32,000 nucleotides of DNA from Candidatus Nanopusillus sp. (GCA_028275775.1 JAPWTZ010000001.1:1-32000); one strand, 5' to 3'; positions 5,916 to 31,896 are shown, counted from the first letter of the stretch. The notes: generated by a model from the sequence alone, not told the origin. Translations and numbers: made by a program.

Positions 5916-7331
5916 TTATTTTGTAATTCTTATAATTAATCCATTAGAATATTTAACTCTATCCCAAATTAAATATCTATATCTTAATTCTGCTCTTGGC
6001 AATTCTATATTTTTATATTCTTTTATATCTTTTGCTTCTAATGTATAAGAAATAACTATTTCTTCATTTCTTCTTATATTATCAAATTTCCAGTTTAAAC
6101 TATAATTATTATCTACCTTATAAACTGAAGATGGTTCTACAATTTTATATTCTTTTACTTTTAATGGTCCGTTTACCCTATCTATTAATTTAACCTGATT
6201 TAATGGAAATATACTTTTATTTTTTATATTTATTGTTACATCTATTGTTTCTTTATCCAAATCAATCCTCAATATTTCTTTTGATATTTCTATATTATCT
6301 CTTAAGAATATATAGAATATTATAAATAATATTAGGAGTACTGAAGCTATAATTTCTGCTAATAATAGATAGTTAAAGTTTTCGTATATTATATAAGATT
6401 GTCCTGGTAATAAAAACACATTATATATTGCATATTTAGATCCATTTATATTGCCAGTATAATATTGGTTTGGATAAAATGTAGAAAATATTCCATAATA
6501 ACTTTTTAAATAATATGTATAATTGATTGGATAATTGTATGGATTTGTTATATTTATTATATATTCTAATCCATTTTTAGTTATTTCTATTATTGGGGTT
6601 GTATTTAATTGAAAAACTGTGAAATTTAGATAATATGTATAATTATTTGAATATATTATTAAATGATGTTCTCCTATAGAAACATTATTCGATATAAATA
6701 TTGGAAATTGATATATATTTACTCCCGGACTTAATGTTTCATTATAAAATGCTGAAAAATTAAAATCAGAAGATATATTAATTGATAAATATTGACTGAA
6801 ATTGTTTGGATTATTTATTATTCCTATTAAATATATGAAACTATTTTGAGCTACTGTTGAACTTGATAATTCAAAGTTTATTGATAATGGTAAAATAATA
6901 GTTGAATTTGTTACAATTGGTTGACTATAATATAATACTGGAGTAAATTGGATTATATCCGAATAATATTCTGAGGTAATATTTAGATTATGCAAATATA
7001 CAACTATTTCTGGTATTTGATTAATAAAACCCAGGGGTCTCATATATATTTCTATTTCCTCTAATTGACCAGGATATAAATATCCAGAAACTAATGTATT
7101 ATTTTCTCCTATAATAAAGAACCATTGAGATGATAATGGTGAAATATCATAATAGTATGTATAATTTGTTGGATTATATATATTTATTTCATATATTGCA
7201 TAACTATTTGGATTAGATATATTAATTTGATTATTTATTACTGTTGGATATCCAACTATTGGCTGCTGTGAATAAATTTCTAACATTATTGGTATAATTA
7301 ACATACCCAACAAAATCTTCCTCCAATCCAT
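5916..7331 (-). CDS. Hypothetical signal-peptide membrane glycoprotein (sequon-dense ectodomain, one TM, C-terminal beta-rich domain)
   Basis: 471 aa. There is an N-terminal hydrophobic signal (ILLGMLIIPIMLEIYS), many N-x-S/T sequons, a TM segment (LLLAEIIASVLLILFIIFYIFL), then a ~125-aa domain. No confident family assignment. Confidence 0.6.
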   Translation of the reverse strand: MDWRKILLGMLIIPIMLEIYSQQPIVGYPTVINNQINISNPNSYAIYEINIYNPTNYTYYYDISPLSSQWFFIIGENNTLVSGYLYPGQLEEIEIYMRPLGFINQIPEIVVYLHNLNITSEYYSDIIQFTPVLYYSQPIVTNSTIILPLSINFELSSSTVAQNSFIYLIGIINNPNNFSQYLSINISSDFNFSAFYNETLSPGVNIYQFPIFISNNVSIGEHHLIIYSNNYTYYLNFTVFQLNTTPIIEITKNGLEYIINITNPYNYPINYTYYLKSYYGIFSTFYPNQYYTGNINGSKYAIYNVFLLPGQSYIIYENFNYLLLAEIIASVLLILFIIFYIFLRDNIEISKEILRIDLDKETIDVTINIKNKSIFPLNQVKLIDRVNGPLKVKEYKIVEPSSVYKVDNNYSLNWKFDNIRRNEEIVISYTLEAKDIKEYKNIELPRAELRYRYLIWDRVKYSNGLIIRITK

Positions 7332-9036: not shown

Positions 9037-9351
9037 ATGAAATTTTGTCCAAAATGTGGAAGCTTAATGAAAAAAGAAAATAATTATTTAGTATGTCCAA
9101 ATTGTGGATATAAAGAAAAAATAAAAGATGAAAATTCTTTGTTACTTACAGAAAATATAAATAAATCTTCAGAAATTACAATTATGGAAGAAAATTATAA
9201 TTTATATCCAATTGATAATGAAATTGTATGTCCCAGATGTGGAAATAAGGGAGCATATTTCTGGTCTATTCAAACAAGAGCTGGAGATGAAGGTGAAACA
9301 AAATTTTATAGATGTGTAAAATGCGGATATACATGGAGAGTATATGATTGA
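9037..9351 (+). CDS. tfs: Transcription elongation/cleavage factor TFS (TFIIS/RpoM-type)
   Basis: 104 aa. The N-terminal Zn ribbon is CPKCG...CPNCG. The C-terminal TFIIS-type ribbon is CPRCG...QTRAGDEGET...CVKCGYTW, with the acidic DE hairpin. Confidence 0.9.
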   Translation: MKFCPKCGSLMKKENNYLVCPNCGYKEKIKDENSLLLTENINKSSEITIMEENYNLYPIDNEIVCPRCGNKGAYFWSIQTRAGDEGETKFYRCVKCGYTWRVYD

Positions 9352-9853
9352 AAAAATAAAGAAACTAGTATTAAGAATATTTTTGGGAGATGATTATTTA
9401 AGTGACATATTATTTATAATATTTATATTTATTGTATATTTTATTATTCAAATTGTATATCCACCATTATTTTCAGTAATTGTATCTCCAAGCATGGAGC
9501 ATTATTATTTTAATTTCCAAAGATATGAACAATATAATATTACAAAACAAGAATTTTCTCAATTTCCATATCCAAATGGATTATATGTCGGAGATATAGT
9601 AATAATTTTACCAATTAATACAAAATATTTAAAAATTGGCGATGTAATTTTATATAAAGGAATATCTTTGTATAAAAATGAAGATATTTTTCATAGAATA
9701 GTTGGTTATAATAATAGTAATTTTATAATTATGGGTGACAATAATCCGGGACCAATAATATTTGAAGGAGAAAATAATATGGATCCAAGTAGAATTATTG
9801 GAATTGGGATATTAAGAATACCTTTACTTGGATATATTAAGCTTTTGATTTAA
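9344..9853 (+). CDS. Signal peptidase I, archaeal/Sec11 type (S26B)
   Basis: 169 aa. It has an N-terminal TM, the catalytic Ser box VSPSMEH, the His box IFHRIVGY and a GDNN box. Its start overlaps the tfs stop by 8 nt. Confidence 0.75.
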   Translation: MIEKIKKLVLRIFLGDDYLSDILFIIFIFIVYFIIQIVYPPLFSVIVSPSMEHYYFNFQRYEQYNITKQEFSQFPYPNGLYVGDIVIILPINTKYLKIGDVILYKGISLYKNEDIFHRIVGYNNSNFIIMGDNNPGPIIFEGENNMDPSRIIGIGILRIPLLGYIKLLI

Positions 9854-18559: not shown

Positions 18560-19060
18560 TCACGATAGTGTATATCCAGTAGATACTGGATTATCATAAT
18601 AATATACATAAATAGTAGAACCACTCAAAGAAGATATTCCAAAACTATTCATATTAACGGTCATATTTATTTGAAATATTGAATTTTGAGGTATTGTACC
18701 ATTTATATATGAATTACCAGATGATGGATTTGTTATATTATATATGTAACATTCTAAATATCCTTGAGCATTTCCGCTTAAAACTACAGGACATTTTTGA
18801 CTATTTCCGTTGATAGAGGAAAATTCTACTAAAAGATTATTTGCAACTAATTGAGTAGATCCTATATTTTGGGCTAAAATTTCTATATTACCGTTTGAGT
18901 TATTATAAGTTACTTGTAATATTTCGACTTGAGCACCTAGATTTGTAACTTGATTACTTACATAACCCTTTGCCCATCCAACTATAATTGCACCTAAAGC
19001 TACTGTTAGAGCAATTAATATAATTGTTGCAATCAAAGGAGATACAGCTTTTATTTTCAT
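18560..19060 (-). CDS. Archaeal type IV pilin-like protein (class III signal peptide)
   Basis: 166 aa. The N-terminus MKIKAVSPLIATIILIALTVALGAIIVGW matches the archaeal pilin N-terminal motif (K-A/G then VSP[VL]IAT plus a hydrophobic helix). A sequon-rich beta domain follows. Confidence 0.75.
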   Translation of the reverse strand: MKIKAVSPLIATIILIALTVALGAIIVGWAKGYVSNQVTNLGAQVEILQVTYNNSNGNIEILAQNIGSTQLVANNLLVEFSSINGNSQKCPVVLSGNAQGYLECYIYNITNPSSGNSYINGTIPQNSIFQINMTVNMNSFGISSLSGSTIYVYYYDNPVSTGYTLS

Positions 19061-23762: not shown

Positions 23763-24557
23763 TTATGGCCATATCCATCTTCTATATAAACCTTTTTCAT
23801 TTGCAAAATTGTTTGCTTTTTGATAAGATTCTATTGTACCAATATCAAACCAATATTCATTATCATCATTATATACATATCCATATAATTTTTCTCCCCT
23901 TTTTATTAAATATTCAAAGAAATTTCCCATAGAATCTTTACTATAATTAGAATTCATATATTCATCTAATAGATATAATTTCTCCTTTGGAATATAATAT
24001 ATTCCAGTAGATATTGTAGTATATAATGGATTTTGAGGCTTTTCATAAAATTCTTTTATTATATTATTTTCTATTTTTACTACTCCATAATTTTTTGCAT
24101 CATCATAATTCTTTATATCATATACTGCCAAAGCTATAGAATTATTTTCATTCCCCAATTTAATTATTTTATTTAAATTAAAGCTAAACAAATTATCTCC
24201 CAATAATATTAATAGATTATTATTTATGCCCATTTCTTTTATTGCATAATGTAAACCTCCAATTGATCCTAGCTTATTTTCTTCAGAATTTGATGGTTCA
24301 ATTACTAATCTTATTTTTCCAATTTGATATGGTTCATAAAAAGAATATAATGCTGCTAGAATATGTCTAAAATGATTTTCATATTTTTTATTTGTTGATA
24401 TAATTATTTCATCTGAACCTGTTTCTAATGCTTTTTCTATTATATAATATATTAAAGGTACACCTCCCACTGGAAACAATGGTTTTGGTACATAATCTGA
24501 TAAAGGTTTAAATCTCTTAGCAAAACCGCCCGCTAATATTAGAGTATCTAAACTCAT
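23763..24557 (-). CDS. Sugar-phosphate nucleotidyltransferase (glucose-1-phosphate thymidylyl/uridylyltransferase-like)
   Basis: 264 aa. The N-terminal signature ILAGGFAKRFKPLSDYVPKPLFPV is the G-x-G-x-R-x(n)-K NTP-transferase motif. LGDNLF follows. It starts 22 nt downstream of the giant surface-protein gene on the same strand. Confidence 0.8.
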   Translation of the reverse strand: MSLDTLILAGGFAKRFKPLSDYVPKPLFPVGGVPLIYYIIEKALETGSDEIIISTNKKYENHFRHILAALYSFYEPYQIGKIRLVIEPSNSEENKLGSIGGLHYAIKEMGINNNLLILLGDNLFSFNLNKIIKLGNENNSIALAVYDIKNYDDAKNYGVVKIENNIIKEFYEKPQNPLYTTISTGIYYIPKEKLYLLDEYMNSNYSKDSMGNFFEYLIKRGEKLYGYVYNDDNEYWFDIGTIESYQKANNFANEKGLYRRWIWP

Positions 24558-24579: not shown

Positions 24580-27500
24580 TTATGAATAAAATAGTTCATA
24601 ATTTCCAAATCCTTGGGGTATAAATGTATTATTTGTAGATATTATATTTCCATTACCTCCTACTATCTTTTCCACAATATAACTATTAGCAGGTGGTAGA
24701 TCAATAAATGTAACATTTCCATTTATATTTCCTATTATTGATATTCCTGCATAATAATTATATAATGTGTTATTTACATTTGTACTAGATATTACACTGC
24801 TTAAACTATTTATGAATCCTTGTGAATTATTATAATATACATTTACACTTCCTGTAGATGTTGTTAAATTATCTATATATCCACTTCCATATATTTCTAT
24901 ACCTAATTGTGAATTATATAATGATATGTTTGTTGCATTACCTGTTAAATAATATCCAAATAATCCTCCATTTGTTGTTACATTTATTATATTATTTGGT
25001 TGGGTTATATATAATCCAAATACTTGTCCTACTTTTATATAATCATTTTCTATATTATTTCCTGAAGATGTTAAATATATTCCAAATATATTTGATTGTA
25101 TATTATTATTTATTATATTATTGTTATTTCCATTGTTTATCTTTATTCCAAATATATTAGATATTACATTACTATTTTCTATTATATTATTTATTGCATT
25201 TCCATCAAAATCTATTCCAAATATTTGTCCATTTACATTTGAATTATTTATTATTACATTATATGGATTATCAATATATATTCCCCATACTGATGATTGA
25301 ATATTAGTATTTTCTATTGTTGAATTTTGTATATAACCATATATTCCTCCTATATTTCCATTTATTGTAGAATTATATACATTTATTATTGATGGATTCT
25401 TTATATTTATTCCAAATAATCCTGAATTTATATTATCATTTATTAAATTTAATTCTCCATTTTCTACATTTATTGCAAATAGATTTGTATTAATATTTAT
25501 ATTCTGTATTGTTACATTTGCTGATTCCACATCTATAACAGGCAATCCTGGATTTGCTGGTTCAAATAATGTATTTTGTCCTAATAATGTTATATTATTA
25601 CCTTGTGGATTTATTACTAAGTTTACTAAATATACTCCTGGAGAGAATACTACTACTGGTGTAGAACTATTAATTGCTGAATTTATTATTCCTTGTATTT
25701 GTGTATTACTTAATGTTGGATTTACTACAGATACATTATATGCATTTTGTGATATATATATTACCTGTGGACTTGTATATTGACTTATTCCATAATTATT
25801 ATATGCATATACCCGATACCATATTGAATAATATCCATTACTACCTAATTTTGCATATTGTTGTAATATTCCATTATATAATATATCTGAACATGAATCT
25901 GCTATTGTTATCCATTGATTACTTGTTTGATTTAATAATTGTATTTGACAATAATCCTGACCTAATGTATTATCATATACATTTGCACTAACTTCTAATA
26001 ACCATATATTTTCTTGTGTACCATTTGATGGTGTAGGATATACATATGATACATTAAACGTTGGTGGAGGTAATGTATAAACATATATTCCAGTTGAATT
26101 TGTTTGTCCAAAGGGATTTGATGTTGATAATTCTATTGTTATATTTCCACCATTTGGTATAATATTATATAATCCTGGTAAATTGTATGATGAATTTTCA
26201 TAATTTAATTGGATAATATTATTACCTGGTGTTACACTTATATTATATGTTTGTCCATTTATTGTTACATTTACATTTGGATAATTCGTATAGAATGATA
26301 TATTTAGTTGATAGTAATTTGATACAGAATTATTAGATGGAGAAATAATATATATTTCTGGATTAACTATAGGAATTACTGTAATTGTAGTAGAATTGGT
26401 AGCTCCATTTGATGCAACACCAGTTACTGTTACACTATAAGTACCCGGTTGTATATTACTATTTGCACTTACTGTTAAAGTTACTGATGCATTTGGAGTA
26501 ACCTGAGTACTTGATAGTGAACATTGTAGATTTGAATTATTTGTAGAACAAGAAAGAGTAACAGATGTAGAGGCTCCACCACTTAGCTGAGTAATATTTA
26601 TTATTGTAGAATTCGAAGAACCAGCATTTACATAGATACTGCTTGGTCCTTGTATAGAGAAGGAATATGGTTGTACATTAACTGTAATTGTAGTAGAATT
26701 GGTAGCACCGTTCTGTGCAGTACCTGAAATTGTTACAGAATATGTTCCTGGAGTAATTGAAGACGAAGCAGTAACAGTTAATGTTAATGATGCATTTGGA
26801 GTAACTTGAGTACTTGATAGTGAACATGATAAATAACTACTATTTGTAGAACAGGATAAGCTAACTGGTAATGGAGATCCACTATTTAATTGAGTAATAT
26901 TAATTGTTGCCGAATTAGAAGAACCCACATATGTATTAATACTGCTTGGTCCCTGTATTGTAAATGAATACGGTTGTACATTAACTGTAATTGTAGTAGA
27001 ATTGGTAGCTCCATTTGATGCAACACCAGTTACTGTTACACTATAAGTACCCGGTTGTATATTACTATTTGCACTTACTGTTAAAGTTACTGATGCATTT
27101 GGAGTAACAGTTGTATTAGATAATGAACAAGATAAATAGCTACTATTTGTAGAACAGGATAAAGTTACTGGTATTGGTGACCCATTATTTAGTTGATTTA
27201 CATATATTGTTGTAGAATTACTATAATTTGTATAAACGTATATACTACTTGGTCCTTGTATAGAGAAGGAATATGGTTGTACATTAACTGTAATTGTAGT
27301 AGAATTGGTAGCTCCATTCTGTGCAGTACCTGAAATTGTTACAGAATATGTTCCTGGAGTAATTAAAGACAAAGCAGTAACAGTTAATGTTACTGATGCA
27401 TTTGGAGTAACTTGAGTACTTGATAGTGAACATGTTAGATTTGAATTACTTGTTGAACAAGATAAAGTTACTGGCAAAGCAGTATTTCCAGTTAATTGAT

Positions 27501-28212
27501 TTACATATATTGTTGTAGAATTACTATAATTTGTATAAACATTTATACTACTTGGTCCTGTAATATCAAAAGTAAATACTGGAAATCCTAATACTAATGC
27601 AGAAACATACTCAGTTGATCCCCCACCTGGGGCAACGTTAAATGAAACCTTATAAGTACCTGGAGCTAAATCTTTACATATCGCAGCGTATACACTAGCT
27701 GCAGTTCCAGAAGATGTTAAAAATAATTGAGAACATCCAGTAGGTAATGTTATCCCACCAATATTACCTCCATTCTTCGTTCCTCCCGAGGATATTAATA
27801 TTAATACTGTCTCATTTTGTCCAGAAACAGTATATGAAACTGTTACTGCACTTCCTCTATTATATGTATTTGTAAAAGTAGTTAAAATAACTGGAACAGA
27901 ATAATTATTTAAAGAAACTCCACCAATTACATAACTTGTAGCTGTAGTAGTAAATGAACATGAATTTGTACTAGAATTTCCAATTACTGCATAACCTCCA
28001 TTATTTATCATTACATTAAAGCTTGGAGTAAGAGTTGAACCAGCAGAAGCAGCAACACAATAATATAAATTTGCTGTAGTTAATGTTATGCTCTTAGCCG
28101 CAGCACTATTACTTCCAACAATGTCTGCTCCTACCTGTGAATATATATTAAATGTAGAAATTAACAATAGAAAACTTACTATAGTAAAATATAGTATTTT
28201 CTTTATTCCCAT
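24580..28212 (-). CDS. Giant secreted surface protein: signal peptide, Cys-containing N-domain, 4 Ig-like ~100-aa tandem repeats, 2 further beta-sandwich regions and a right-handed parallel beta-helix (PbH1-type) domain
   Basis: 1210 aa. The N-terminal signal is KKILYFTIVSFLLLISTFNIYS. Repeats span aa 212-612. aa ~835-1112 show a 22-23-aa periodicity, N..I.....(F/W)GI.(I/L). IQGIINSAINSSTPVVVFSPGVYLV resembles a beta-helix N-cap. N-x-S/T sequons are very dense. There is no C-terminal TM. Confidence 0.8.
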   Translation of the reverse strand: MGIKKILYFTIVSFLLLISTFNIYSQVGADIVGSNSAAAKSITLTTANLYYCVAASAGSTLTPSFNVMINNGGYAVIGNSSTNSCSFTTTATSYVIGGVSLNNYSVPVILTTFTNTYNRGSAVTVSYTVSGQNETVLILISSGGTKNGGNIGGITLPTGCSQLFLTSSGTAASVYAAICKDLAPGTYKVSFNVAPGGGSTEYVSALVLGFPVFTFDITGPSSINVYTNYSNSTTIYVNQLTGNTALPVTLSCSTSNSNLTCSLSSTQVTPNASVTLTVTALSLITPGTYSVTISGTAQNGATNSTTITVNVQPYSFSIQGPSSIYVYTNYSNSTTIYVNQLNNGSPIPVTLSCSTNSSYLSCSLSNTTVTPNASVTLTVSANSNIQPGTYSVTVTGVASNGATNSTTITVNVQPYSFTIQGPSSINTYVGSSNSATINITQLNSGSPLPVSLSCSTNSSYLSCSLSSTQVTPNASLTLTVTASSSITPGTYSVTISGTAQNGATNSTTITVNVQPYSFSIQGPSSIYVNAGSSNSTIINITQLSGGASTSVTLSCSTNNSNLQCSLSSTQVTPNASVTLTVSANSNIQPGTYSVTVTGVASNGATNSTTITVIPIVNPEIYIISPSNNSVSNYYQLNISFYTNYPNVNVTINGQTYNISVTPGNNIIQLNYENSSYNLPGLYNIIPNGGNITIELSTSNPFGQTNSTGIYVYTLPPPTFNVSYVYPTPSNGTQENIWLLEVSANVYDNTLGQDYCQIQLLNQTSNQWITIADSCSDILYNGILQQYAKLGSNGYYSIWYRVYAYNNYGISQYTSPQVIYISQNAYNVSVVNPTLSNTQIQGIINSAINSSTPVVVFSPGVYLVNLVINPQGNNITLLGQNTLFEPANPGLPVIDVESANVTIQNININTNLFAINVENGELNLINDNINSGLFGINIKNPSIINVYNSTINGNIGGIYGYIQNSTIENTNIQSSVWGIYIDNPYNVIINNSNVNGQIFGIDFDGNAINNIIENSNVISNIFGIKINNGNNNNIINNNIQSNIFGIYLTSSGNNIENDYIKVGQVFGLYITQPNNIINVTTNGGLFGYYLTGNATNISLYNSQLGIEIYGSGYIDNLTTSTGSVNVYYNNSQGFINSLSSVISSTNVNNTLYNYYAGISIIGNINGNVTFIDLPPANSYIVEKIVGGNGNIISTNNTFIPQGFGNYELFYS
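24877..25710 (-). repeat. Degenerate ~66-69-nt coding periodicity (parallel beta-helix coils)
   Basis: On the + strand, 'tattccaaata'-like strings recur, being the reverse complement of the (I/L)FGI codons. At protein level there are at least 10 coils of the form N-x-x-I-x-x-N/S-x-F/W-G-I. Confidence 0.6.
26377..27579 (-). repeat. In-frame tandem DNA repeat (4 units of ~300-303 nt, with a 606-nt super-period) encoding the Ig-like repeats of the giant surface protein
   Basis: Read directly from the sequence: 26378-26502 is identical over 125 nt to 26984-27108 (offset 606). 26642-26760 is near-identical to 27248-27366 (offset 606). The motif ggttgtacattaactgtaattgtagtagaattggtagc recurs about every 303 nt. 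Confidence 0.9.
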
Positions 28213-28285
28213 AAGATATTAGGAAACATTGTCCAATATAAAATTATGATTGTTAATAAGCTTAATCATTTATGATAATCGAACC

Positions 28286-28359
28286 CGGGCCCGGGGGGAT
28301 TCGAACCCCCGATCTTCGGGTTAAAAGCCCGACGCTTTACCAGACTAAGCTACGGGCCC
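28286..28359 (-). tRNA. tRNA-Lys (anticodon UUU)
   Basis: The reverse complement folds as GGGCCCG-TA-GCTT-AGTCTGGTA-AAGC-G-TCGGG-CTTTTAA-CCCGA-AGATC-GGGGG-TTCGAAT-CCCCC-CGGGCCC-G. It is 74 nt with no intron and no encoded CCA. Confidence 0.9.
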
Positions 28360-28403
28360 AACAATATTTAATTTATATTTATGATTCTTATATAAATTTT
28401 TCA

Positions 28404-29090
28404 TTATCCATATAAAGATATATAGTTTATAGATCCATTGAAATATTGAAAATAATTTAAATATACTGTTGGATAAATGTTCATTAATATGTTTGGAAGA
28501 CCAACAATTTTATCCCCATTATACAAGTATAATACTGTATTATAATTATTTATAATTAAGAATTTTTCATTTGTATTTATATAAATACTAGAATTTCCAA
28601 TTAAATTAAAATAACAATATAAGAAAGTTCTTGTATATACACTAAAAAATGAAGAACTCAAATAATTGTTGCAATTATAATATGCAGAATTGTTTGTTAT
28701 ACTAATATTCTGTGTTGTTCCATAAATATAAACTTGCAAAATTGATGATACATTTATATTAGAGTTCTGTATTATTTCTATATTGTTTGAACCCATATTA
28801 TAAAAAAACTCTATACAATTATTGCAAATATATGGGTTTGTAGATAAAAATATAACATCGGGAGTATAATAATATGAAAAAGAAAAATCTGTATAATTAT
28901 ATACTATTTGAGGATTATAAAATTGAGAAAAATAAAAAGAACTAATATATAATTTTTGATATTCCGATATTTTATATAATCCAGTAGAATATTGAGATAA
29001 TCCATTGACTATATCTTGATACATATAAACTATGATATATAAAAATACAGCAAGTGTAATTAATACCTCAATCCAACTTTGAGATTTCAT
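28404..29090 (-). CDS. Hypothetical pilin/pseudopilin-like exported protein (TadE/Flp-like N-terminus)
   Basis: 228 aa. After a short polar N-terminus comes [24 protein letters not shown], an I-E-x-hydrophobic helix. The rest is Asn/Tyr/Ser-rich with Cys pairs (CNNC, CNN..). An ATGA overlap joins it to the upstream platform gene. The family call is tentative. Confidence 0.45.
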
Positions 29091-30367
29091 ATTGTTACAT
29101 TAATGTTTTGCTTTTGTATATATTTTTTCCCATTATAATTTAATATTGCTTCTATAATATATGTACCAGTGCTATTTAATTCAATAGATTGAGAATAATA
29201 TCCATTCTGTAATATTTGAAAATTCTGATAAACATAATTTCCAGCCGAATTTATTACATATATTGTTAATGGAGCATTTGTTATTGGTTGCGCATCAATA
29301 TATCCATATACTTGTATATTTATTGGAGTATATACATAAGCAGTTGTTGGAAAAACTTGTAAATTAAATGATACAAAAGAAGGTAGAACAAAAATTACTA
29401 TAGATAACAATCCTATTAAATTATTTATTGCTAAATGTTTTACTGAAGATCTCATTTTTCCACTTTCTGCAATACCCATTATAATTGATGCTGAAATTCC
29501 TACCATAATTATTGATAAAGATGTAATAAATTTTAACCATGAATAATTTATTTGAGAAGAAAAGAAATTAAATGTTGTATGAATAGTAGAAACAGAAATT
29601 TGACTTATTATCAATGGTTTAATTGTATTTAATATAGAAATCGATAATCCAATAAATATAATAAATATAGCATATAAAACCAATATTTGTTGTGATATAT
29701 ATGCTCTCTTTAATCCATCCAATTCCTTTATAGATTCTAAATCATTGTATAACCTTTTTAAAACCTTTGAAATATCACCTCCTCCTTTATATGTTTCTAG
29801 TATTACATAATTAATCATTCTTATATTTGGAAGTTCTTCAAAATACATATTAAATAATGTAAATGCCTTTTCAAATGGCATACCCCAAGCAATCCAATTA
29901 TACAATTTTTTAACTAAAAAAGATAAATATCCTAAATCTACTGAAGATAAATATGCAAGGGCATCTAATAATGTCATTCCAGATGATAAACTTTCAGACA
30001 AATAAGATAAAAAATATGTATAATTATTAGAAATATTTTCATATATTTTGCTTTCAATATACTTGTAAAATAGGTATGGAACTCCTCCTACAAGATATAT
30101 AACTATTATTAATATTGAAAATGTTATATAATTTTCATATAATTTAAATATTATCCCAAATATTCCAATAATTGCTGCAAATAAAATAGATATATATAGT
30201 ATAAACCTATCTTCCTTGATATACGAACCAAAAACATTTATTTCTTTATAATGCAATGGATCCTTTACATTAAAAATTTGATCTATAAATCTTTCAATTA
30301 ATCCCCTTTGATTTACTCTTTTATTATATGTATTAACTATCATTATACTTTTAATTTTGGATGTCAA
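29087..30367 (-). CDS. Type IV filament platform protein (single T2SSF domain; TadB/TadC/FlaJ-like) fused to a C-terminal extracellular beta-sandwich domain
   Basis: 426 aa from the TTG at 30367; the first ATG at 30343 gives 418 aa. The T2SSF-like core is FLSYLSESLSSGMTLLDALAYLS...GMPFEKAF...ILETYKGGGDISKVLKRL, flanked by TM helices. The last ~93 aa after the final TM are beta-rich. Confidence 0.7.
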   Translation of the reverse strand: MTSKIKSIMIVNTYNKRVNQRGLIERFIDQIFNVKDPLHYKEINVFGSYIKEDRFILYISILFAAIIGIFGIIFKLYENYITFSILIIVIYLVGGVPYLFYKYIESKIYENISNNYTYFLSYLSESLSSGMTLLDALAYLSSVDLGYLSFLVKKLYNWIAWGMPFEKAFTLFNMYFEELPNIRMINYVILETYKGGGDISKVLKRLYNDLESIKELDGLKRAYISQQILVLYAIFIIFIGLSISILNTIKPLIISQISVSTIHTTFNFFSSQINYSWLKFITSLSIIMVGISASIIMGIAESGKMRSSVKHLAINNLIGLLSIVIFVLPSFVSFNLQVFPTTAYVYTPINIQVYGYIDAQPITNAPLTIYVINSAGNYVYQNFQILQNGYYSQSIELNSTGTYIIEAILNYNGKKYIQKQNINVTI

Positions 30368-31227
30368 TATTTAAATATATGGCTAGTATACTTGATCAAT
30401 TTTTTAGTGGTATAGAAAAAGATTTATTAGCAATTAATTCTAAAGAAGATCCTTCTAAGTATATATATAAAGCTAAAATATATTCAATAGGAATATCTAT
30501 ATCTATATCAATATTAACATTTTTTTCTCTTTTAATATATAATATAAAAGTATATGGATCTTTTAATCCAATTTTTCCATTAATATTTGGAATACTTACT
30601 GGTATCCTAGGACTCTTTGGATCTTTATTTTTATTTAAGAAATATCCATCAATAGAAAAACAGAATAGAGCCAGAAAAATAGATAATTCTCTATATTATG
30701 CAGTGCTATATATGGCTTCTTTAGTTTCTTCTGGTGCAACTCCAAAAGCATTATTTGAATTATTATCAAAATATAGTGAATTTTCAGAAATAAAAAAAGA
30801 AGCATCTGAAATAATATACTTAATAGATACTGTAGGATTATCATTACCATTAGCATTAGAAAGAAAAGCAGAATATTCTCCGTCAAAGAAATGGGCTTCA
30901 ATATTAAATGGAATGAGATCTATAATAGTTGAAGGTGGAAATCTTGAAGAATATTTATATAATGAAGCTGAGAAATTATTTGATGAATATAAAAGAAAAA
31001 TAATAGAATATTCAAATAATATGCAAGTATTTTTAGAAATATATATTACATTAATAATTGTTGGGGTTATATTTGTAATTATATTAACTACATTAATGGG
31101 ATCTATTTCTGGAACAAACTTTCAATATATAGAATTTCTACAACTAATGAGTATATTAATAATATTACCAATGGGTACAGTTATGTTTATTATATTATTA
31201 AAATCGCTTAGCCCATTTGAAACATAG
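30361..31227 (+). CDS. Type IV filament platform protein (single T2SSF domain; TadB/TadC/FlaJ-like)
   Basis: 288 aa. After two TMs comes RARKIDNSLYYAVLYMASLVSSGATPKALFELL...GLSLPLALERKAEYSPSKKWASILNGMRSIIVEGGNLEEYL, followed by C-terminal TMs. This is the typical FlaJ/TadC half-domain pattern. Confidence 0.7.
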   Translation: MSIFKYMASILDQFFSGIEKDLLAINSKEDPSKYIYKAKIYSIGISISISILTFFSLLIYNIKVYGSFNPIFPLIFGILTGILGLFGSLFLFKKYPSIEKQNRARKIDNSLYYAVLYMASLVSSGATPKALFELLSKYSEFSEIKKEASEIIYLIDTVGLSLPLALERKAEYSPSKKWASILNGMRSIIVEGGNLEEYLYNEAEKLFDEYKRKIIEYSNNMQVFLEIYITLIIVGVIFVIILTTLMGSISGTNFQYIEFLQLMSILIILPMGTVMFIILLKSLSPFET

Positions 31228-31233
31228 TTATTT

Positions 31234-31896
31234 TTATTCTATACTAATATTAAGATTGTATATATTTAAAATATTTTGAACTAATTGATTATCATTTATT
31301 ACTTTAATTTCTCCATTTTCTAACCCACTTTTAATTATATCTACAAAATTTCCTTTTTCATATTTTAAATAATTCAAAATTTTCTCTGATATTGAATACG
31401 AAAGATAAATTATCAATGTATTATTTATATTATTTATATATGAAATTGGTATATTTGTAATTCCTTTACTAGTAAATACAAAAGCTCCACAAGAGTTATT
31501 TATACATAATATAAATGAATATTGAGGATACATAATATTTAATTTTGTATAATATAATTCATAATTTTCCATGTATAAAGAATTATTTAATAAATAACTA
31601 TCTACCTTATTAATAAATTCTATAGAAGTATTTGGATTACTAAAATTAAGATTTTTTGGATTAAATACACCATTTATCGACATCTTAATTATATCATAAG
31701 TTGTTAGATTTAGTTCATAATATCCAATTTCAGTCTCATTATCTGAAATATTATAAATATATGGTAATTTAAGAGAATATATTGGATAAAATAGATATCT
31801 ATAGATTATTGATGCAAAGATCATAAAAATTGAAAATATTATCAAAAAAATCAAAATTTTATCTCTAATAGATGACTTCTTCAATATTTCTTTCAT
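31234..31896 (-). CDS. Hypothetical N-terminally membrane-anchored protein
   Basis: 220 aa. The single N-terminal TM is ILIFLIIFSIFMIFASIIY, followed by a sequon-containing ectodomain. No family recognised. It is convergent with the platform gene, with a 6-nt spacer. Confidence 0.45.
   Translation of the reverse strand: MKEILKKSSIRDKILIFLIIFSIFMIFASIIYRYLFYPIYSLKLPYIYNISDNETEIGYYELNLTTYDIIKMSINGVFNPKNLNFSNPNTSIEFINKVDSYLLNNSLYMENYELYYTKLNIMYPQYSFILCINNSCGAFVFTSKGITNIPISYINNINNTLIIYLSYSISEKILNYLKYEKGNFVDIIKSGLENGEIKVINDNQLVQNILNIYNLNISIE

Follow-up and report, generated by a model that had tools for sequence, protein, structure and literature searches.

What does a nanoarchaeon use to recognize a specific host and keep hold of it through two S-layers? 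We know of no adhesin of DPANN archaea or Nanoarchaeota that has been identified experimentally for this task, and the locus described here raises the question of whether a candidate is at hand. The window, the whole 32,000-nucleotide (nt) stretch of DNA that was analyzed, comes from Candidatus Nanopusillus sp. (GCA_028275775.1, JAPWTZ010000001.1:1-32000); it has a guanine-plus-cytosine (GC) content of ~23% and carries archaeal housekeeping genes, including aIF5B, S6e, and Kae1/TsaD. An earlier note, made from the sequence alone, had placed a secreted protein of 1210 amino acids (aa) at 24580-28212, and an open reading frame (ORF) with an ATG start and 1210 codons plus a stop lies at exactly those positions on the minus strand. 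Its orthologs, kept at 34-91% identity, show that the ORF is a genuine gene rather than a chance reading frame. On balance, we favor the reading that the product is a non-catalytic adhesin, an exported and acid-stable binder of the host surface, and neither an S-layer subunit nor an enzyme. The gene and its domains, including immunoglobulin (Ig)-like repeats, are listed below.

24580..28212, minus strand: complete gene, 1210 aa; ortholog of N. acidilobi Nps_01900 (arCOG06957) and N. aerobiophila MJ1_0451
28126..28212, minus strand: Sec-type signal peptide, aa 1-29 (MGIKK / ILYFTIVSFLLLISTF / NIYSQVGA), probably cleaved after VGA
27574..28125, minus strand: N-terminal all-beta domain, aa 30-213, with Cys 52, 85, 160, and 179
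26362..27573, minus strand: four tandem 101-aa Ig-like repeats, aa 214-617, each with a C-x8-C pair
26041..26361, minus strand: beta-sandwich A, aa 618-724, the first domain of a 3' module that is 100% identical between paralogs (N. acidilobi, N. stetteri)
25747..26040, minus strand: beta-sandwich B, aa 725-822, with Cys 755 and 774
24853..25746, minus strand: alpha-helical cap (aa 836-848) and right-handed parallel beta-helix (aa 853-~1120)
24583..24852, minus strand: C-terminal tail, aa 1121-1210, with no transmembrane (TM) segment and low AlphaFold2 (AF2) confidence

The protein belongs to a family of secreted Ig/beta-helix glycoproteins that has been described before and is restricted to Nanopusillaceae. 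It is 91% identical to Nps_01900 of Candidatus Nanopusillus acidilobi and 53% identical to MJ1_0451 of Nanobdella aerobiophila, both over the full length; Nanopusillus/Nanobsidianus metagenomic proteins reach 80-90%, and one metagenomic homolog reaches 34%. Nps_01900 and MJ1_0451 are true orthologs: they agree with the window protein in the arrangement of their modules (N-domain, Ig-like folds, beta-helix, and the conserved C-terminal motif), share many N-x-S/T sequons, and have no C-terminal TM segment. Nps_01900 is annotated as an 'uncharacterized secreted protein' (arCOG06957; Wurch et al. 2016 supplement). The architecture given in the earlier note is therefore correct but already known from these published orthologs. 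The window copy differs in having four near-identical tandem Ig repeats, as in strain 7A, whereas other Nanopusillus/Nanobsidianus orthologs have 1-3, and in lying at a TadC/tRNA-Lys locus, whereas MJ1_0451 lies in an archaellin cluster. A word-index search with the C-terminal module returned homologs from Nanopusillaceae only, the N-terminal domain gave 11 matches in 1.84 billion representatives, and none of the homologs returned (106 + 18) came from N. equitans.

The modular build read earlier from the translation was reproduced by modeling. The AF2 model of aa 27-320, which covers the N-domain and the first repeat, is all-beta with a predicted local distance difference test (pLDDT) score of 90.6, in agreement with the ~185-aa domain with four Cys that had been described at this end. 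The four ~100-aa Ig-like repeats with C-x8-C pairs are evident both from the DNA, in which the period is exactly 303 nt (101 aa) at 71-83% identity, and from the modeled fold, in which the C-x8-C pair of a repeat sits on two adjacent strands (Cys pairs 252/261, 353/362, 454/463, and 555/564). The repeats are mosaic, with back halves that are 94% identical between the first and third and 86% identical between the second and fourth, which suggests recombination among them. Their region has 1 charged residue in 400 aa and 21 sequons. Foldseek matched the Ig part to tandem Ig/FN3 structures, among them the adhesins SiiE and GspB and the S-layer proteins SbsB and SbsC. All Pfam matches of a single repeat were sub-threshold (InlK_D3, K319L-like PKD, and Cadherin-like; E~0.01-0.02), and a profile search of the PDB gave the KIAA0319L PKD domain at E=0.0011 and otherwise only PKD and Hoc Ig-like domains. 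Wzt_C and FliD_N were rejected; their full-length scores exceed the cut-off only through summed weak, partial repeat matches (E=0.06-0.1 for a single repeat).

The AF2 model of aa 611-1210 has an overall pLDDT of 76.5. It contains the two additional beta-sandwiches that the earlier note had suspected (aa ~620-724 and ~738-821; pLDDT ~80-93), followed by the capped PbH1-type beta-helix that it had also predicted. The modeled helix has ~12 coils of 22-23 aa with three strands each in an N..I.....FGI register, with pLDDT mostly >90, and its coil periodicity is visible in the DNA as 66-69 nt. A full-length hmmscan of the protein returned no beta-helix family even at E<=1. When aa 823-1110 were scanned alone, PF13229 Beta_helix matched at E=8e-9 with 35.8 bits against a cut-off of 25.9, and a 93%-identical ortholog gave 38.5 bits. 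Because only the isolated 288-aa segment passes the PF13229 gathering threshold, biased, repeat-rich proteins should be scanned domain by domain. The tail ends, over its last ~35 aa, in a motif shared by the whole family, [IV]xKI[VI]G..G..I...F.P.G[FY]G.Y.L[FY]Y[SR], and this segment may be a docking or oligomerization element.

By inspection, the N-terminus has the features of a class I signal peptide: a basic n-region (MGIKK), a hydrophobic h-region of 16 residues (ILYFTIVSFLLLISTF), and a c-region (NIYSQVGA) with small residues at -3/-1, followed by D. It is the only segment of the protein in which the 19-residue Kyte-Doolittle hydropathy exceeds 1.6, and the [VY]GA motif before the mature end is kept in the 53%- and 34%-identical orthologs; both observations support the cleavable-looking signal peptide of the earlier note. 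According to the text of Kato et al. (bioRxiv 10.1101/2023.10.27.564410), MJ1_0451 also belongs to the signal-peptide proteins that were surveyed for their Table 1. A class III signal peptide is not seen, as the N-terminus reads KK-ILYF and has no G, A, or S at -1, and the protein has no Pfam match to the pilin/archaellin families PF01917 and PF07790. Hydropathy and sequence inspection found no TM segment, sortase-type motif, or class III signal in the mature protein, and the tail was likewise free of a TM segment, as had been noted. Retention on the cell could, speculatively, be achieved by an uncleaved signal-anchor, by docking of the C-terminal module or tail to the S-layer, or by docking to a filament. 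Two other products of the window bear on export. The signal peptide of a second secreted-looking protein, of 471 aa (5916-7331, minus strand), ends in EIYSQ, a motif shared with the 1210-aa protein; this second protein has a sequon density of 3.8 per 100 aa and matched no Pfam family. A 169-aa membrane protein (9344-9853, plus strand) contains SPSMEH, which we take to resemble the catalytic-serine motif of type I signal peptidases (Sec11/S26), making it a candidate processor of the 1210-aa protein.

The composition is that of an extracellular protein in an acidic environment. Only 45 of the 1210 residues (4%) are charged, as compared to 22-38% for cytoplasmic proteins and 5-16% for pilin-like and secreted neighbors in the same window. 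N. acidilobi grows near pH 3-3.6 (PMC4935971), and the low charge fits an exposed protein of an acidophile. The dozens of sequons mentioned in the earlier note amount to 49, or 4.05 per 100 aa, which exceeds the value for cytoplasmic proteins of the window (0-0.8) by a factor of 5-10. However, composition shuffles of the same protein give 41.6 +/- 5.5, and its 40% content of N, S, and T accounts for the number; sequon enrichment was therefore dropped as an independent signal. The protein is probably heavily N-glycosylated, and N. acidilobi cells display GlcNAc-containing surface glycans (PMC4935971). A predicted trypsin digest of the mature protein yields only 12 peptides, one of them 600 aa long. 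The proteome columns for Nps_01900 are blank in the supplementary table of Wurch et al. 2016, and the absence of another protein, Nps760, from the proteome was put down to a lack of tryptic sites (PMC4935971). Because the 1210-aa protein is nearly trypsin-proof, its absence from trypsin-based envelope proteomes is unusable as a refutation.

Comparison of strains and paralogs divides the gene into two parts with different histories. Genes flanking it are 85-97% identical to their counterparts in N. acidilobi and relatives, whereas the large gene reaches only 81-91%. Type-A orthologs have 4, 4, 3, 3, 2 (six proteins), 1, and 1 Ig repeats; whole ~100-aa domains thus distinguish strains, and the window copy, with four, resembles strain 7A. 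Two loci each are present in N. acidilobi 7A, N. stetteri Nst1, and one metagenome-assembled genome (MAG). In the second, type-B paralog, ~385 aa are inserted into the N-domain, and only one Ig repeat is present. In the type-B paralog of N. acidilobi, DUF2341 (PF10102) scores 21.6 bits against a cut-off of 23.4, a near-threshold match; the family was absent from the window protein in full-length and segment Pfam scans. The 7A paralogs are identical over 1776 nt, from codon 617 at the start of sandwich A to the penultimate codon (locus L004, 7391-9164, vs locus L005), and the Nst1 paralogs share an identical run of 1786 nt (L009 vs L010). Between the 7A and Nst1 genomes, identity of this 3' module is only 91-97%. 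Perfect identity within a genome together with lower identity between genomes points to gene conversion that is still under way, provided that the assembly is not at fault. The 3' module is constant and the 5' half is variable, such that each genome carries two heads on one identical body.

The two 7A copies (CP010514.1, ~118-122 kb and ~333-337 kb) lie in opposite orientation ~205 kb apart on a 606-kb chromosome, and the resulting 1.78-kb perfect inverted repeat is a potential substrate for a large chromosomal inversion. The orthologs in the Nanopusillus MAGs RSNP5 and CON-C-r01 (L012 6434-9168; L013 220-2946) contain 2 and 4 frameshifts, respectively, with no runs of N and with intact flanks. 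These copies could reflect pseudogenization, phase variation, or mis-assembly of a variable, repeat-containing gene. An excess of non-synonymous single-nucleotide polymorphisms (SNPs) has been reported in hypothetical external proteins and TadC homologs of Nanoarchaeota (PMC6142677); the nanoarchaeal FlaJ/TadC homolog in which Jarett et al. 2018 found a high density of non-synonymous SNPs may or may not be one of the TadC genes of the window.

The function of the beta-helix was approached through its structural relatives and its conserved residues. In a Foldseek search against the PDB, in which all matches had 8-14% identity, the top match was the pneumococcal adhesin PfbA (E=1e-5). The helix then matched fucoidan lyase FdlA (TM-score 0.44-0.46 on the target), GH110, galacturonidase, and AlgE6, as well as the phage tailspikes of CBA120 (TSP3), phi29 (gp12), and LKA1. 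Among viral predicted structures (BFVD), phage tailspike-like proteins with FN3 and pectate-lyase parts matched at E~1e-10. The modeled fold alone leaves the choice between enzyme and binder undecided. In known beta-helix enzymes, hydrolysis takes two or three carboxylates, and a lyase requires a basic catalytic residue together with charge neutralizers, as in the glycoside hydrolase (GH) family GH28, the polysaccharide lyase (PL) family PL1, and tailspikes. We aligned 18 sequences from three lineages, namely, Nanopusillus, Nanobdella (66% identity in the helix), and a 44%-identical metagenomic homolog. In this alignment, only D1003 (D/E) and, mostly, E884 are conserved in the helix; a conserved carboxylate pair or triad was not found, and no K, R, or H is conserved. 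Full-length and segment scans matched no GH or PL Pfam family at E<=1. Because no conserved catalytic residues were found, glycan binding is favored over cleavage, with moderate confidence; at the limited depth of the alignment, the result makes an enzyme less likely and no more than that.

Several characterized systems resemble the family in part. PfbA of S. pneumoniae (PDB 4mr0) is likewise a right-handed parallel beta-helix on a cell surface that binds rather than catalyzes. Unlike the window protein, it is bacterial, has an LPXTG/sortase anchor, and lacks an Ig-repeat stalk and N-glycans; at 13% identity, the relation is at the level of the fold only. EtpA of enterotoxigenic Escherichia coli (ETEC) offers an analogy as a secreted, N-glycosylated, beta-helical, and anchorless protein that is retained by binding flagellar tips. 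However, EtpA uses two-partner secretion (TPS) through an outer membrane and has a TPS domain, and filament binding by the archaeal protein is an analogy only; a sequence relation to EtpA is not expected. Phage tailspikes and depolymerases share the order of one or more beta-sandwiches (FN3 or Ig) followed by a beta-helix, and the combination of a constant part with exchangeable parts. They differ in having conserved catalytic Asp/Glu pairs and particle-binding N-domains, whereas the window family keeps one acidic helix residue and is cellular and Sec-exported. A partial likeness is also seen in the methanogen adhesin-like proteins and the DUF2341 'PilY-like' putative adhesins (PMC11532034; PMC4858521), which are archaeal, large, and secreted, have beta-helix and/or Ig-like modules, and lie near type IV filament genes; the near-threshold DUF2341 match of the paralog adds to the likeness. 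The window protein itself, however, has no DUF2341, and no sequence homology to these adhesins was detected.

The surroundings of the gene include a tRNA gene and several genes resembling those of type IV filaments:

28285..28360, minus strand: tRNA-Lys(UUU) gene, directly upstream of the large gene
28235..28243, minus strand: TATA-box-like TTTTATATT, ~27 nt upstream of the ATG
28404-29090 (minus), 29087-30367 (minus), 30361-31227 (plus), and 31234-31896 (minus): type-IV-filament-like cluster, upstream of the large gene
18560-19060, minus strand: archaeal type IV pilin, 166 aa (PF07790 Pilin_N, E=2.9e-5), 5.5 kb downstream

In every genome examined, both the large gene and its paralog have a tRNA-Lys gene 72 nt upstream, and it is at this tRNA that the similarity between the paralogs begins (L004 5390-5465; L005 5262-5336; L009 5202-5276; L010 6291-6365). 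The tRNA of the N. acidilobi paralog is Lys(CUU), and both Nst1 copies are Lys(UUU); in Nanobdella and YN1, tRNA-Lys instead follows a nucleoside triphosphate (NTP)-transferase gene. TTTTATATT is part of a 72-nt leader that is conserved before both paralogs in three genomes. The large gene may therefore have its own promoter, with the reservation that a TATA-like box has low specificity in DNA of 23% GC. On its other side, a nucleoside diphosphate (NDP)-sugar pyrophosphorylase gene (23763-24557, PF00483) starts 22 nt past the stop codon on the same strand. Co-transcription of the two genes is possible; they have been adjacent only since the relocation of the large gene in Nanopusillus.

The filament-like cluster encodes a 228-aa low-charge protein (w228), two single-domain TadC/T2SSF proteins, one with a C-terminal beta-sandwich-like extension, and a 220-aa protein with one TM segment and 4.1 sequons per 100 aa. 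The start of w228, MKS/QSWIE, is similar to a pilin-type (class III) signal that has Glu at +5. In N. acidilobi, according to the supplement of Wurch et al. 2016, an uncharacterized 1-TM protein and two TadC genes come after Nps_01900. The 166-aa pilin has a class III signal, MKIKA/VSPLIATIILIAL (MKIKA/VSPL), contains 5% charged residues, and is conserved in every Nanopusillus/Nanobsidianus locus at the corresponding place. In Nanobdella, a Nanopusillaceae MAG, and the contig of the 34%-identical metagenomic homolog, the large gene lies between archaellin genes. The order there (L001 8690-16435, Nanobdella AP019769.1; L002; L011) is ArlB-like (196 aa), a 205-aa protein with a class III signal, the large beta-helix protein (34-53% identical to that of the window), tRNA(U54) methyltransferase, the major archaellin (283 aa), and tRNA-Thr. 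In Nanobdella, MJ1_0449/0450 are upstream of MJ1_0451, the major archaellin MJ1_0453 is downstream, and the class III start in the neighbor is MKGQ. The filament-like cluster of the window is itself conserved in Nanobdella (MJ1_0432) and YN1 (YN1_0020), where the TadC-TadC-228aa-NTP-transferase locus is present without the large gene. Because the TadC locus exists without the gene and the gene is flanked by archaellin genes elsewhere, it appears to have been relocated from one filament locus to another in Nanopusillus/Nanobsidianus. The same observation indicates that the large gene is no core part of the TadC/w228 system and weakens the idea that this locus is its dedicated partner. Homology of w228 to the archaellin-cluster protein MJ1_0450 was rejected (hhalign probability 0.2%).

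The published proposal for this family is enzymatic. In Kato et al. (bioRxiv 10.1101/2023.10.27.564410), MJ1_0451 and two other proteins are called 'pectin lyase-like'; the three have a parallel beta-helix along with 1-8 Ig-like folds and 36-52 N-glycosylation sites, and the authors suggest that they degrade the glycosylated host wall. A lyase or glycosidase of this kind would cut host S-layer glycans and open a contact site, a role that suits the lyase, glycosidase, and tailspike matches of the helix and the remodeling of the host envelope at the attachment organelle (PMC11104419). We regard it as unlikely, since one acidic residue, D1003, is kept family-wide without any conserved basic residue, and the generic PF13229 is the sole family-level match. 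The chance that the protein is a structural part of the nanoarchaeal envelope, as a subunit of the S-layer or as a lattice or stalk component associated with it, is slim. Its size, Ig-like domains, glycosylation sites, and low charge do resemble those of archaeal S-layer proteins; SbsB and SbsC are among the fold matches of the Ig part, and the lack of an anchor of its own recalls SlaA-type assembly proteins. However, the literature assigns the S-layer to other genes: the predicted S-layer protein of N. acidilobi is Nps760 (PMC4935971), and in Nanobdella it is MJ1_0160, NEQ300-like and the top-expressed gene, with MJ1_0451 listed apart (bioRxiv 10.1101/2023.10.27.564410). None of the 106 + 18 homologs is named or annotated as an S-layer protein, a comparison with Nps760 and MJ1_0160 that was made by annotation only. 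Variation between 1 and 4 repeats and frameshifted copies beside intact neighbors in two MAGs suit an essential lattice subunit poorly; in addition, the searches returned no homolog from N. equitans. The paralog at L005 is not Nps760: its flanks are FtsZ and FKBP upstream and DUF72-like and TruA-like genes downstream (assigned by reading translations), whereas Nps_00760 adjoins an RNase PH-related gene. The two-part reading of the earlier note, adhesin or S-layer-like, thus stands for a secreted surface protein with an adhesin-like build, given the folds, the PfbA match, and the 4% charge, and is disfavored for the S-layer.

A different placement would have the anchorless protein ride on an archaellum or a TadC-dependent pilus, with the constant C-terminal module docked to the filament and the variable N-terminal half contacting the host. 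The filament-gene context is suggestive of this but weak. The flanking archaellins in Nanobdella and two other divergent contigs, the two TadC genes and the pilin-like start of w228 in Nanopusillus/Nanobsidianus, the unexplained 'thorn-like densities' on N. aerobiophila archaella (PMC11104419), and the large secreted putative adhesins commonly held in archaeal type IV pilus loci (PMC4858521) all point in this direction. However, a tRNA methyltransferase also sits in the archaellin cluster, such that synteny may be inertia in slowly rearranging small genomes. The type-B paralog adjoins no filament genes, the TadC locus of Nanobdella and YN1 is intact without the large gene, w228 has no detectable homology to the archaellin-cluster protein, and the 1210-aa protein has no class III signal peptide. 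Carriage on a filament is accordingly improbable in our estimate, though a little less so than a structural role in the S-layer. The host-surface adhesin that we favor has its own difficulties. Lyase, glycosidase, and tailspike folds match about as well as PfbA does, and the catalytic-residue test is shallow, consisting of three independent lineages in one automatic alignment. With no anchor found, the protein might simply be released. The perfect identity of the paralogs may owe something to errors of assembly or polishing, above all in the Nst1 draft. Adhesion is a prediction from these features, and either end of the protein may face the host.

Our analysis allows a sequence of steps to be proposed for the adhesin. 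The protein is most likely exported through Sec with removal of the 29-aa signal peptide. It then very probably folds into an elongated chain of domains that runs from a disulfide-bonded N-terminal beta domain through four Ig-like spacers, each stapled by a cross-strand Cys pair, two sandwiches, and a capped 12-coil beta-helix to the tail. Because the 3' module is identical between the paralogs of one genome, it should perform a function that both share; the sandwiches, helix, and tail may dock to the cell's own envelope or filaments or bind a common glycan. The variable 5' half, with 1-4 Ig repeats of ~4 nm reach each, might set the reach and specificity toward the host surface, and the DUF2341-like insertion of the paralog would be a further 5' difference.

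The repeat-number polymorphism, the tRNA-Lys-linked paralogs with a homogenized 1.78-kb module, the relocation between filament loci, and the lack of conserved catalytic residues were not found in the literature consulted. The analysis defines a constant module (aa 618-1210), argues against the published 'lyase' label, and explains the invisibility of the protein to trypsin proteomics. If the protein is carried on filaments, it would be the identity of the 'thorn-like densities' of Nanobdella and an archaeal counterpart of EtpA. On this same filament reading, the tRNA-Lys-linked paralogs, homogenized by gene conversion, would constitute a two-cassette system with different host-binding heads and one docking module. 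The family is a reasonable adhesin candidate: it is limited to terrestrial Nanopusillaceae, the hosts of which have glycosylated S-layers, its sequence changes faster than those of its neighbors, it varies in length between strains by whole Ig domains, and it has two heads per genome.

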